Made by a program: the position numbers and the translations under genes. From the IMG/VR virus record IMGVR_UViG_2703719354_000026: 5,680 bases of DNA. One strand, 5' to 3'. Shown in pieces: positions 1,427 to 5,680 of this stretch. The notes under the pieces were generated by a model that saw nothing but the letters and a program-made list of their open reading frames with translations, ran no database searches and had not been told where the DNA came from. The stretch comes from a virus. Its lineage: Duplodnaviria; Heunggongvirae; Uroviricota; Caudoviricetes. Position 1 is the first letter of the stretch, and the number at the start of each line of letters is the position of its first letter.

Positions 1427-1660
1427 TTATTCTCCGGTGTGCTGTTCTTTATATCTGTCGTGCAATAGATCTATTTCTTGCAGTTCCATTATTACAGGCT
1501 CAAGAATCGTTATTAATGCCGTGGCAATTCTTGATTTTTGTTTGTCGCGTTCATTGTCGCCACGTGTTTCAAGCCATATGCGAAATATTTCCAACATATT
1601 TTCACTGTGAGAAAGTGCAAGAAATGCGCGGTCTATTGTTTCAAGATAAATATCACGCAT
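1427..1660 (-). CDS. Hypothetical small acidic protein (77 aa)
   Basis: ATG at 1660 with GGGGA 5 nt upstream. Starts 1 nt after the stop of the upstream ORF and ends 5 nt before the next start. Net acidic. Confidence 0.6.
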   Translation of the reverse strand: MRDIYLETIDRAFLALSHSENMLEIFRIWLETRGDNERDKQKSRIATALITILEPVIMELQEIDLLHDRYKEQHTGE

Positions 1661-2324: not shown

Positions 2325-2782
2325 AAGCCTACCCCCTGACGAATACGGGCGACAAAAATCAGATGTGCGTGCGGCAGCTGGGCGCGGGCTTCGCGTTCAG
2401 TGGCTGCGGTAACGGTGTAAATATCAATGCTGCTGTGGTGGCACTGCATAAAGCGCCAGACAAAGTAAGGGCGTGCGGATACAGCCATGTGAAAGGCTCC
2501 CAGATGAATTTTAAGGAGTCTCGCTACTACGCTGCTAAACATGGTGGCGAGACGTAACAGGGTTAGCAGACTGGTCATCTGGAAACCAGCGAGCACAAAG
2601 GCTCCCCCGTTACGCCCCGCCATAATGCGGGTATGGGTAGGTTTACGGACACAAAAAAACCGCTTATCGGATGTGGGCGGCTGTCCGCCAGATGTATTCA
2701 GGCTGCTAAACCCGGTCGCCATGTGGGCGACGGGGGAAGCATACAGCCCCGTGATAATTTTTTGCAAGCGGTTTTTACGCAT
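2321..2782 (-). CDS. Hypothetical protein (153 aa); the C-terminal 55 aa (from internal ATG at 2488) is a paralog of ORF 2775..2972 and may be translated separately
   Basis: ATG at 2782 with AGGGG about 8 nt upstream, overlapping the upstream ORF's stop by 8 nt. Internal ATG at 2488 has GGGAG 8 nt upstream. C-terminal domain carries 'FVWRF', 'TEREAR' and 'ARIRQG' motifs. The N-terminal part has a hydrophobic stretch ('AFVLAGFQMTSLLTLLRLATMFSSVVA'). The ORF-track version starts further upstream at 2824 (GTG). Confidence 0.45.
   Translation of the reverse strand: MRKNRLQKIITGLYASPVAHMATGFSSLNTSGGQPPTSDKRFFCVRKPTHTRIMAGRNGGAFVLAGFQMTSLLTLLRLATMFSSVVARLLKIHLGAFHMAVSARPYFVWRFMQCHHSSIDIYTVTAATEREARAQLPHAHLIFVARIRQGVGL
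2333..2351. repeat. Copy 1 of an exact 19-bp direct repeat (plus strand cccctgacgaatacgggcg) at a gene junction
   Basis: Identical 19-mer at 2333..2351 and 2790..2808. On the minus strand it encodes the C-terminal 'ARIRQG' of one protein and supplies the RBS of the next gene. Confidence 0.9.
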
Positions 2783-3101: not shown

Positions 3102-3281
3102 GTGTCAACACACAAAAACGAAAGGCGTGGTAATCCTCCGTTCCAGTTCCGTTTAGATCCTGACTTACGGGAAAAGATGGAAAAGGCACAACAACAGGAC
3201 GGCGATGATTCTCTTGCTGCCTGGATAAAGCGAATAATCCGCAAAGAATTACAGCAACGCGGCATAGAACCCAAAGGATAA
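3102..3281 (+). CDS. Arc/MetJ-type ribbon-helix-helix (RHH) DNA-binding protein, 59 aa, GTG start
   Basis: GTG at 3102 with GAGGTG 8-9 nt upstream; in-frame stop immediately upstream at 3087..3089. Translation 'VSTHKNERRGNPPFQFRLDPDLREKMEKAQQQDGDDSLAAWIKRIIRKELQQRGIEPKG' follows the Arc/Mnt/CopG pattern (N-terminal beta strand 'FQFRL', then two helices). Below the ORF-track length threshold, so not listed there. Confidence 0.75.
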   Translation: MSTHKNERRGNPPFQFRLDPDLREKMEKAQQQDGDDSLAAWIKRIIRKELQQRGIEPKG

Positions 3282-3748: not shown

Positions 3749-3872
3749 GTTATGCCTGAAAAACCCCAATTTTGTTGTTTTTCAGTTTCACCAGGGCGAA
3801 CGAATCCCCGCCCACGTTCTGGCGTATATTCAATCTTCATGGTTATAGCTCTGTGTTCAGATGATTGATGTG

Positions 3873-3891
3873 TGGCGGCTGCGTGCCGCCA
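3873..3891. other. Perfect hairpin (7-bp GC-rich stem, 5-nt loop) 7 nt downstream of the alpA stop, without a U tract
   Basis: tggcggc (3873..3879) - tgcgt - gccgcca (3885..3891). No T run on either strand, so not a canonical intrinsic terminator. Confidence 0.5.
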
Positions 3892-3897
3892 GCGTGA

Positions 3898-4086
3898 TTA
3901 ATGAACTGCCTTGCAGCTATCCTTCCAGGCCAGAACCTCGGATAAAGACCAGCCAACGGAACGACCGCCAAGTTTACGACGTGATGGGAATTGTCCGGCC
4001 TTTTCCAGGCGGTAGCGACACGTACGGCTAAGGCCGGTTAGTTTTTTGCATTCTTTTTCACGTATAAACCGATCAGTGCTTAACAC
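3898..4086 (-). CDS. alpA: AlpA-family (prophage CP4-57 regulatory protein-type) small HTH transcriptional regulator / excisionase-like protein, 62 aa, GTG start
   Basis: Translation 'LSTDRFIREKECKKLTGLSRTCRYRLEKAGQFPSRRKLGGRSVGWSLSEVLAWK' matches the AlpA pattern (RFLRL..TGLSRST.YRL...G.FP....LG.RSVGW...E...W). GGGGG lies 6 nt upstream of the GTG. There is no in-frame ATG upstream (stop at 4114..4116). It sits directly downstream of the integrase, as is typical. Confidence 0.9.
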   Translation of the reverse strand: MLSTDRFIREKECKKLTGLSRTCRYRLEKAGQFPSRRKLGGRSVGWSLSEVLAWKDSCKAVH

Positions 4087-4235
4087 TATTGCCCCCTTTC
4101 GTTTCTTAAAGAGTCATCAGGTGTCTTATTGTGTCGTATTGTTCCCGCTAGAGTGATGAATGGCAAATACTGAGGATGTATGATTTACAGAAAATGAAAC
4201 AGTAAGAATAAAATCTTTTAAATTCATGTTAATAC

Positions 4236-4264
4236 AAAGGCATAAAATATTGTTCCATGCCTTT
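4236..4264. terminator. Possible bidirectional terminator-like hairpin between int and alpA
   Basis: aaaggcat (4236..4243) / atgccttt (4257..4264) with a 13-nt loop; T-rich on both flanks. The large loop and AT-rich stem make it weak. Confidence 0.3.
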
Positions 4265-4271
4265 TTTCTCG

Positions 4272-4283
4272 CTCTTTAAAGAG
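4272..4283. promoter_or_regulatory. 12-bp perfect palindrome CTCTTTAAAGAG upstream of alpA; a related TAAAGAGT copy is at 4108..4115
   Basis: Exact palindrome read from the sequence. The 8-mer TAAAGAGT recurs about 170 bp away, bracketing the likely alpA promoter region. Confidence 0.4.
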
Positions 4284-4360
4284 TGATTCGCTAGTGTATA
4301 AAAAACCAGTAACACATTAGAAATCAGCCACTTATAAATCCGTACGCTTTTTCGCCTCTT

Positions 4361-4410
4361 GTTCGTAGTTGTTCCACATTGTTGCTCATTGTTGCACGTT
4401 GTATCTGTTC
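4361..4410. repeat. Four to five tandem copies of a degenerate 10-bp unit (consensus about GTTGCWCATT), helical periodicity
   Basis: Consecutive 10-mers gttcgtagtt / gttccacatt / gttgctcatt / gttgcacgtt / gtatctgttc. CATTGTTGC is exact at 4377..4385 and 4387..4395. Confidence 0.6.
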
Positions 4411-4417
4411 GCATATC

Positions 4418-4433
4418 CAGTATGCGCATACTG
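4418..4433. promoter_or_regulatory. 16-bp perfect palindrome CAGTATGCGCATACTG just downstream of the integrase stop
   Basis: Exact palindrome with no loop and no following U tract, so more operator-like than terminator-like. Lies 18 nt beyond the int stop (4451). Confidence 0.45.
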
Positions 4434-4450
4434 AAAAAACACGAAAAAAA

Positions 4451-5680
4451 TTATTTTCTTCTGGCTACTGGTAGTGCGGTTACGTTTTCATGTGTTCCCG
4501 CCAGTATCCCTAACCGCTCCATCCACATATCCAGCGCATTGCGTTTAGCATCCAGATAACGGGAATGATTATAAACTCGCTGCATTCCTGGCATCTGGTG
4601 GCCTGTAAGCTGCTCCACGACGTGAGGATCCACGCCTAAATCGTTCAGCATCGTTGTAAAGGTGCGCCGGATGTCATGTAGTGACCAGTGAGGGTGATTT
4701 AGCCTCCTGTGCGCTAATCTGCCGTACTGCGACACGCTTGTTTCCTGTTTCACTTCCCCCAGCAATAAGCCCGTGTGCCTGTTCTGCTCCACCAGCTGCG
4801 TGACGAACGGCAGTATTGCTTCCGGTATGGGCCGGAATATGGCTACCTTCGTTTTGCTGTGCTCCTTCGGAACAGTCCAGAGCATTTCGGTAAAATCCCA
4901 CTCGCCGATCTCCGATAACCTAAGTTCGACCGTCCGGCATCCGAACACAATCAGGAGGCGGATTAGCGCGATGTAGTAGGGGGAGAATATTTTTTTGTCC
5001 AGTGCCTGCAATAATTCGCCAAGTTCTTTGTTGCTTAAGACACGCTCGCTTATATCCGGTTTTTTCCCAACGTCCGCCACACTCATATCATCAAGAACGT
5101 TGCTGATTGCATAGCGCCGCTTCCGGCAGAACTTAAGCGCCTGCTTGCATGTCTGTAGCAGGAACCCGGCGGAAACAGGGGCTTGCTTTGCCACCCGATC
5201 AAAACAGGCCAGCCAGTGCCGTAGCTCGCATTTATCCAGCGGCATAGGGCCAATGTGCTGTATTACGTGATTATTTAGCCGCTTTTTCAGTGGGTCATAA
5301 TCCACACGGTTTTCCTTTGCGTACGACTCAAGCCAGTAGGTGAGCGCATCACCAACCGTTACGGGCTTTAACGCTTCCTGTACGGTGTAATTCATCTCAT
5401 GACGTGGATTTTTCCCCTCTGCCAGCCATGCGCGACACTGGGCGGCTTTTTCCCTGGCTGATTTCAGGCTCAGATCAGGATAATTTCCCAGCTTAATGCG
5501 GTCCGGTGGTGCCCCCCTTCCCGTTCCGGCCCTGTAAGTGAAATACCAGGTTAAAAGGCCACTGGTTGAATGCCTGACGCTCAGGTTTCCACCGTCATTA
5601 AGAAAGGCTGTTTTTTGGGCGGGTGTGCCGTTGATTTTCCTCAGCTGTGTATCGCTCAGTTTGTTAAGTGCTCTGCTCAT
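4451..5680 (-). CDS. int: Tyrosine site-specific integrase, P4-type (N-terminal arm-binding domain plus C-terminal catalytic domain), 409 aa
   Basis: ORF-track ORF. The N-terminus 'LSDTQLRKINGTPAQKTAFLNDGGNLSVRHSTSGLLTWYFTYR' matches the P4-like integrase arm-binding domain. The C-terminus carries 'HDIRRTF', 'LTGHQ' and 'RVYNHSRY' (catalytic His/Arg/Tyr of tyrosine recombinases). The start codon coincides with the last 3 nt of the window, so the true start could lie further upstream. Confidence 0.95.
   Translation of the reverse strand: MSRALNKLSDTQLRKINGTPAQKTAFLNDGGNLSVRHSTSGLLTWYFTYRAGTGRGAPPDRIKLGNYPDLSLKSAREKAAQCRAWLAEGKNPRHEMNYTVQEALKPVTVGDALTYWLESYAKENRVDYDPLKKRLNNHVIQHIGPMPLDKCELRHWLACFDRVAKQAPVSAGFLLQTCKQALKFCRKRRYAISNVLDDMSVADVGKKPDISERVLSNKELGELLQALDKKIFSPYYIALIRLLIVFGCRTVELRLSEIGEWDFTEMLWTVPKEHSKTKVAIFRPIPEAILPFVTQLVEQNRHTGLLLGEVKQETSVSQYGRLAHRRLNHPHWSLHDIRRTFTTMLNDLGVDPHVVEQLTGHQMPGMQRVYNHSRYLDAKRNALDMWMERLGILAGTHENVTALPVARRK

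Follow-up and report, generated by a model that had tools for sequence, protein, structure and literature searches.

A phased 10-bp repeat array between int and alpA in Escherichia coli PICIs, a putative cooperative binding site for AlpA

Introduction

The Vis protein of P4 is reportedly required for excision; it is also reported to bind in the interval from int to the attP core and to regulate the late promoters. The P4 sequence record names Vis an "excisionase and transcriptional regulator". Excisionases bind direct repeats placed one helical turn apart, head to tail, and Apl, Cox and Vis each use one set of repeats for both att sites and promoters (PMC7498355; PMC11963761). Excision of PICIs requires alpA; the gene is induced by helper phages, and its product activates the alpA promoter (PMC6092414; PMC11773190). 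The induction of Gram-negative and capsid-forming PICIs, which are common, depends on switching on alpA. In the literature searched, AlpA operator sites in PICIs are undescribed, and so are the cis-elements of the alpA switch and the helper signal. Here we describe a phased repeat array in the spacer between int and alpA and its copies elsewhere in the islands.

Results and Discussion

The window and related islands

The window (the whole stretch of 5,680 nucleotides analysed here) represents the left end of a PICI or capsid-forming PICI of E. coli, with Sakai Sp7 and EcCICFT073 as relatives. Its main genes are all on the minus strand, including the two that flank the array:

4451 to 5680, minus strand: int, P4-type tyrosine integrase of 409 aa (Pfam PF13356, 1e-17; PF00589, 2.1e-16)
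3898 to 4086, minus strand: alpA, 62 aa (Pfam PF05930, E = 5.7e-17; PHROG 2790, E = 2e-17)

The N-terminus of the integrase is an arm-DNA-binding domain (Arm-DNA-bind_3) followed by the Phage_integrase domain, and the PHROG 2790 label for AlpA reads "excisionase and transcriptional regulator". Beyond alpA lie several small ORFs and then the start of a RepA-type helicase gene. The int-alpA module (window positions 3800-4700) matched 898 of 5,426 complete E. coli genomes with 77-99.7% identity. Among the matches was the O157 Sakai prophage Sp7, which has capsid, portal and terminase genes downstream; this gene set is that of a capsid-forming PICI as described for EcCIEDL933. EcCICFT073, the prototype Gram-negative PICI (locus L012), occupies the same roxA-phoQ site, and it shares identical Int and AlpA proteins with locus L003. 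Locus L007 is a complete element with 99.7% identity to the window over int-alpA. An Int query against the genome contigs gave one locus only. Two motif scans of viral contigs returned chiefly chance matches; they also gave L161, L223, L119 and further array variants.

Two other features were seen in the window. The first is a region with a C4 antisense RNA (RF01695), which scores 72.7 bits in Rfam and passes the gathering score, and with its a1/b1 target, which at 45.5 bits falls slightly short of it; within this region direct repeats of CCCCTGACGAATACGGGCG lie about 460 bp apart:

2540 to 2627 and 2695 to 2744, minus strand, with 2333 to 2356 and 2790 to 2813: RNA immunity region, from Rfam and direct repeats

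Judged by these matches, the region is a P1/P4-type RNA immunity module in the island, adjoining Icd-like ORFs. The second is a 59-aa ORF (3102-3281, plus strand) of the YlcI/YnfO family, an Arc-like ribbon-helix-helix repressor according to PHROG. It opposes the main operon, shows 17-37% identity between islands and is possibly an island-specific immunity repressor.

Five phased units between int and alpA

TTGT occurs on the plus strand at 4359, 4369, 4379, 4389 and 4399, giving five head-to-tail units of 10 bp:

4359 to 4408, plus strand: distal array, units TTGTTCGTAG, TTGTTCCACA, TTGTTGCTCA, TTGTTGCACG and TTGTATCTGT

A sixth, degenerate unit is TTTTCGCCTC at 4349-4358. The orientation of the array is the reverse of that of int and alpA; it is 43-92 bp past the stop codon of int (4451-4453), and the alpA GTG (4086) is 273-322 bp downstream of it. 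The unit consensus, derived from 33 distinct units in relatives, is TTGTTCCACG. Tandem Repeats Finder reported 4369-4402 (period 10, 3.4 copies, 83% matches) with a score of 47, below the default threshold of 50. For the pattern TTGT-N6-TTGT-N6-TTGT, the chance expectation is 0.04 per window; there were three exact occurrences and one with a single mismatch. The longest run of TTGT at 10-bp spacing never exceeded three in 3,000 first-order Markov simulations, compared with the five observed, and in 1,000 simulated windows no 4-mer of any kind ran beyond three at this spacing. Scored with a three-unit PWM, the distal array reached 35.7, whereas the null maximum was 12.8. It is a genuine, non-random feature and almost certainly a protein-binding array.

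These results bear out the earlier note, which had described four to five copies in exact 10-bp register and had placed them 40-90 bp past the int stop and upstream of alpA. Its motif GTTGCWCATT at 4361-4410 is the same repeat, but the frame was off by 2 nt and the motif is a good fit to units 3 and 4 only. The array could not be explained as coding sequence, as the 10-bp period and the indels of 1 bp and 10 bp are incompatible with the overlapping 66-aa ORFs. An Rfam search of 4087-4450 for structured RNA gave no match. Between the array and the int stop codon we observed a 16-bp perfect palindrome, CAGTATGCGCATACTG (4418-4433), that is present in window-type elements only; EcCICFT073-type elements carry extra array units instead.

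Conservation of the register

We aligned 12 distinct int-alpA spacers from five site classes, namely the window's own type and those at roxA, abgR, tqsA and allE. Of the TTGT columns in the array, 14 of 16 were invariant, compared with 8 of 24 of the other array columns; 50% of the columns were invariant over the whole spacer. The indels that distinguish the arrays of relatives were of whole 10-bp units. The EcCICFT073 type, for example, lacks unit 1 and has two more units on the int side, six in total. Relatives on viral contigs provided further variants with five to six units, every one in exact register, and in the spacer of the more distant cspD-site islands, with an AlpA identity of about 52%, a four-unit GTTCG array persists. 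Elements whose integrases show 42-75% identity have the 10-mer consensus too. As read from these alignments, the conservation pattern is one of selection on a phased short core and not on the whole sequence. A check proposed earlier was whether the repeat register is kept in related elements; across 12 diverged relatives the TTGT cores proved almost invariant, and the intervening bases and unit number were variable.

Array copies at the att arms and the capsid operon

Arrays of at least three perfect units were found at only four places in L007:

1417 to 1388, minus strand: attR-arm array, three units
8881 to 8852, minus strand: capsid array, upstream of the major capsid gene and directly after the perC terminator
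14559 to 14608, plus strand: int-alpA spacer array, a span of five units
15969 to 15930, minus strand: attL-arm array, four units, 50-90 bp upstream of the int ATG

In EcCICFT073, arrays are present at attL, attR and the spacer, and the capsid copy is lacking. A three-unit array stands upstream of the capsid operon in L001, L007, L161, L223 and L249; these capsid-operon arrays lie about 50-80 bp upstream of a promoter-like site and are oriented with transcription. No array was found in about 85 kb of non-island control DNA. The roxA-site crossover core is approximately AAATATGTCC (L007 16052-16062). The spacer array is about 1.4 kb from this core, beyond the few hundred bp of an arm-type distance, and the capsid copy is about 7 kb from it. 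In addition, the cspD-type capsid-forming element L223 has a three-unit TTGTTC array just downstream of alpA (1455-1484, plus strand), oriented with transcription, which suggests a further operon under the same control.

A second repeat, the tandem 12-mer GGTGTAGTTAAT x2, was confined to the two att arms, where it abuts the arrays:

L007 15907 to 15930 and 1355 to 1378: GGTGTAGTTAAT x2, att arms
L001 13908 to 13931: GGTGTAGTTAAT x2, att arm
L012 5885 to 5908 and 17104 to 17127: GGTGTAGTTAAT x2, att arms

In relatives, at positions beyond the window, the four attL units are 3 bp from the tandem 12-mer and the three attR units 13 bp from it. In the circular form, each arm therefore has one module of an array and two tandem 12-mers, about 75-85 bp from the core, and the two modules have the same direction. 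Variants of the 12-mer (TTAAT, TCACT, TCAAT and TGTGTATTGCA) track the N-terminal domain of Int, while the arrays stay TTGTTC. L002 and L014 differ in the 12-mer along with the integrase N-domain, and their AlpA proteins are identical. The tqsA type has the 12-mer TCACT and an Int N-domain of 77-79% identity, with an AlpA identical to that of L002, whose 12-mer is TTAAT. Array-bearing elements with truly different Int also have a diverged AlpA, as in L161. The K-12 element CP4-57 shows the tandem 12-mer layout with TAGGCCCA x2 and has no comparable spacer upstream of alpA.

By analogy with described islands, the 12-mers are likely integrase arm sites. Because the 12-mer follows the Int N-domain and matches the arm repeats of P4 and HE-PICI, the 10-bp arrays are left for another DNA-binding protein. 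From this analogy and the limited covariation, we infer that the 12-mers would belong to Int and the arrays to another DNA-binding protein encoded by the island. It had been anticipated that arm sites belong beyond the int start, and relatives indeed carry the TTGTTC array and the tandem 12-mer there. The proposal of an alpA-control element agrees with the array in the spacer, yet this array is part of an island-wide set that also includes attL, attR and the capsid operon. The copies at attL, attR, the alpA upstream region and the capsid operon suggest a combined excisionase and regulator role for their binder.

The spacer upstream of alpA

The spacer contains a second, shorter array, three promoter candidates and a hairpin:

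4129 to 4148, plus strand: proximal mini-array, two units TTGTGTCGTA TTGTTCCCGC, 43-62 bp upstream of the alpA start
4331 to 4336, minus strand: candidate -10 TATAAG in the alpA direction, 22 bp past the last array unit, read from the sequence
4205 to 4232, minus strand: candidate alpA promoter TTAACA-16-TATTCT, from a consensus scan, just downstream of the hairpin
4138 to 4166, minus strand: candidate alpA promoter TTGCCA-17-AACAAT, from a consensus scan
4236 to 4264, no strand assigned: hairpin, inverted repeat I8, between the two arrays, followed by T6 on the plus strand

The proximal array has two to five units in relatives, differing by whole units. Tandem Repeats Finder reported it at 4121-4142 with period 10, and its PWM score of 11.7 is borderline, the 95th percentile of the null being 10.6. 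The proximal and distal arrays are probably members of one motif family. The distance in register from the proximal to the distal array was 230, 231 or 241 bp across a small sample of relatives, and this kept register hints at cooperation between the two.

The TATAAG candidate has no recognisable -35 and is weakly conserved; a similar geometry is seen in EcCICFT073 (AACAA, 21 nt, TAATAA). On this reading, it could be an activator-dependent promoter abutting the array. In the TTAACA-16-TATTCT candidate, the -10 TAT(T/C)CT is kept in relatives. In the third candidate, TTGCCA is invariant in 12 relatives, the EcCICFT073 type retains the 17 bp between it and NACAAT, and the -10 AACAAT is the reverse complement of the unit junction of the proximal array. 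The capsid-operon arrays prompted us to look also for a plus-strand promoter that the array might drive, but downstream of it we found no convincing -35/-10.

The hairpin is kept in seven distinct relatives with different stems, including one compensatory pair. It appears terminator-like and might either shield alpA from transcription that reads through from int or form the end of a short plus-strand RNA. An invariant TTTACA and a weak -10 (4184-4212) accompany the hairpin region (4236-4270), and together they could specify a plus-strand RNA of about 50 nt divergent from alpA; the hairpin might instead serve as terminator of int. Separately, a perfect palindrome, CTCTTTAAAGAG (4272-4283), and a half copy, TTCTTAAAGAG (4103-4113), lie 170 bp apart and are nearly invariant in relatives, making this pair a candidate operator of a dimeric regulator. 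The pair shares a CTTAAAG core with the P4 "ori type 2 repeats".

AlpA as the proposed binder

We propose, with a probability of roughly 55% and by analogy with Cox, Apl and Vis, that the array is a cooperative site for the winged-helix protein AlpA, which would act as excisionase and regulator through one motif. The AlphaFold2 model of AlpA is a winged helix (pLDDT 77.9). Its best fold match in the PDB was the GIsul2 excisionase (8C3T, TM 0.73), followed by MerR-type domains, RdfS, the Pukovnik Xis and BldC. AlpA is 90-100% identical across the elements in which the motif is unchanged. When the published primers were mapped, the AlpA-responsive PalpA-lacZ fragment pJP2038 corresponded to L012 7128-7583, which includes the six-unit array (L012 7182-7251) and contains no 12-mer.

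In the proposed mechanism, AlpA monomers would sit on the array head to tail, one per 10-bp unit and all on one face of the helix, and would bend the DNA as do Xis, Cox, Apl, Vis, TorI and RdfS. At the att-arm arrays, beside the putative integrase sites, AlpA would direct excision, and at the int-alpA array it would mediate the positive autoregulation of alpA that was measured for EcCICFT073. In the capsid-forming relatives, the TTGTTC motif would be used additionally upstream of the promoter-like site before the capsid operon. Binding of AlpA at the spacer array would thus activate transcription; its effect at alpA may be activation, anti-termination or insulation from int read-through.

Several observations count against AlpA. 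The EcCICFT073 Pint-lacZ fragment (approximately L012 5623-6469) contains the attL array, and it did not respond to AlpA (PMC6092414), whereas the P4 and KplE1 excisionases repress int. The spacer array is opposite to alpA and about 270 bp from its start codon, with the hairpin between. Since the spacer array is opposite to alpA but the capsid arrays are oriented with transcription, no single promoter geometry fits both. Furthermore, the mode differs in Pseudomonas, where AlpA acts from one site placed between the -35 and the -10 (PMC7969949). Of the three binders named in the earlier note (AlpA, the integrase or a helper-encoded factor), the evidence favours AlpA short of proof, and the integrase and a helper factor are less likely.

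If AlpA is the binder, the distribution of arrays at the att arms and the capsid operon gives a predicted AlpA regulon. The array permits a direct test of whether AlpA is Cox/Apl-like in both directing excision and activating transcription, and its 50 bp are a concrete target for mutagenesis and a handle on the alpA induction switch.

Alternative readings of the array

It is unlikely that the arrays are arm-type sites of the integrase N-terminal domain. The spacer copy would then let Int regulate alpA or int read-through, and the tandem 12-mers would be sites of AlpA or another protein. The array motif is present in both att arms and Int carries PF13356, the adjacent lambda arm sites P'1-P'3 are roughly 10 bp, and the N-terminus of P4 Int reportedly autoregulates Pint. 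The authors of the HE-PICI study left both Int and AlpA possible as binder of their doubled motif, while proposing the doubled motifs as four sites of an integrase tetramer (PMC10111431). Such a tetramer, however, is better matched by four 12-mers (2+2) than by 3+4 array units; it is the 12-mers and not the arrays that change with the Int N-domain; and the 1.4 kb and 7 kb that separate the spacer and capsid copies from the core are difficult to accommodate. L161 does not separate Int from AlpA, as both proteins diverged there. Finally, the AlpA-responsive fragment has the array but no 12-mer, so AlpA would need another site there if the integrase held the array.

The array might instead be the docking site of another protein, such as the helper-phage inducer of alpA, a further island protein or a host factor, which we likewise consider improbable. 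Helper phages induce alpA by way of a factor that acts on a fragment in which the array lies (pJP1290, L012 7128-8200; PMC6092414), helper induction of EcCIMP1 persists without alpA (PMC11773190), and the CP4So alpA promoter is published as silenced by H-NS. A helper activator, however, is not expected at arrays beside integrase sites in both att arms. A lambda CII-type site, TTGC-N6-TTGC, occurs once in the window (4382-4395), by overlap only, and is absent from five relatives including the EcCICFT073 type, whose spacer is the one tested with lambda and phi80. The Arc-like YlcI/YnfO protein, found in L007 and L001 by tblastn, is far too variable for an island-encoded binder, with only 17-37% identity among elements with the same array. 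The core contains GC and is sequence-specific, so it is not H-NS-like.

A related and slightly bolder idea, to which we give little credence, is that the TTGTTC arrays are not sites of AlpA but a helper-sensing cis-element, bound by the helper inducer or, during quiescence, by an Int arm domain that is displaced on induction. If this were true, a single phased motif would link the sensing of the helper to excision, to auto-induction of alpA and, where islands form capsids, to expression of the capsid genes.

It is very unlikely that the array is structural DNA only, with phased AACAA tracts giving intrinsic curvature or acting like an UP element, or that it arose by slippage and has no function. 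Short A/T-rich cores phased at 10 bp, as are present here, can bend DNA, and the changes in unit number show that slippage happens. Against this, TTGT is selectively conserved over its flanks, and the 10-mer recurs at four places in the island with none in the control DNA.

The earlier argument from geometry, that phased direct repeats suggest cooperative protein binding, holds, and the conservation supports it as well. Iterons are excluded as the identity of the array despite an iteron-like geometry and the 10-bp "ori type 2 repeats" upstream of P4 vis, because the same array accompanies three replication proteins (a RepA-type helicase, a DUF5906 primase and a DNA primase family protein) and separate iterons lie downstream of rep. 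These iteron-like repeats, CCTCACTT in L007 (10178-10389, RepA-helicase type) and GTCTACC in EcCICFT073 (L012 12000-12250), mark probable replication origins.

Comparison with known systems

The P2 Cox boxes and the 186 Apl sites consist of five to seven direct repeats with 10-11 bp spacing, bound cooperatively and head to tail (PMC7498355), and in this respect they resemble the array proposed here for AlpA. The likeness extends to the use of one repeat at att and at a promoter region, and to the binder, a small (winged-)helix protein with excisionase and transcription-regulator functions (PMC7498355). However, Cox and Apl repress face-to-face lytic and lysogenic promoters, whereas the AlpA of PICIs reportedly activates the alpA promoter (PMC6092414). 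Unlike the Cox and Apl systems, the islands have arrays on both att arms, and the protein belongs to family PF05930.

P4 Vis is the AlpA homologue of the P4-type integrase module and in this is like the AlpA described here. In P4, a 12-bp "attP arm sequence repeat" is present as a tandem pair directly before int and as a further pair in the opposite arm, which is how GGTGTAGTTAAT x2 is arranged here, but its motifs (TTGGGGGCAT and a weak phased TCC series) are unrelated in sequence to the arrays and 12-mers here. Moreover, P4 vis is not adjacent to int, and upstream of it three 10-bp "type 2" repeats are annotated and no five-unit array.

In KplE1, the AlpA-family protein TorI has sites I1-I5 interleaved with integrase arm sites near the int start (PMC2951348), a point of likeness with the islands here. 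The TorI sites overlap and repress the intS promoter, whereas EcCICFT073 Pint is unresponsive to AlpA (PMC2951348; PMC6092414), and for KplE1 no copy remote from att is described (PMC2951348). The HE-PICI motif tgTGTATTGCa x2 is a tandem 12-mer found once per attP arm in a related PICI clade and is the positional equivalent of GGTGTAGTTAAT x2 (PMC10111431); L161 is an HE-PICI-type element whose 12-mers are identical to this motif. It corresponds to the companion 12-mer and not to the 10-bp array, and phased TTGTTC arrays are undescribed there (PMC10111431).

The AlpA of P. aeruginosa belongs to the same Pfam family and is a positive regulator of promoters followed by a terminator (PMC7969949), which parallels the hairpin between the array and alpA. 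It differs in using a single GGGACG-N5-GGTA site for anti-termination and is not known as an excisionase (PMC7969949). This element had no match in the window, even when relaxed. The array fits the known class of excisionase/regulator operator arrays: the islands have at least three phased repeats, a copy in an att arm, an encoded winged-helix protein, and a copy at a regulated promoter region.
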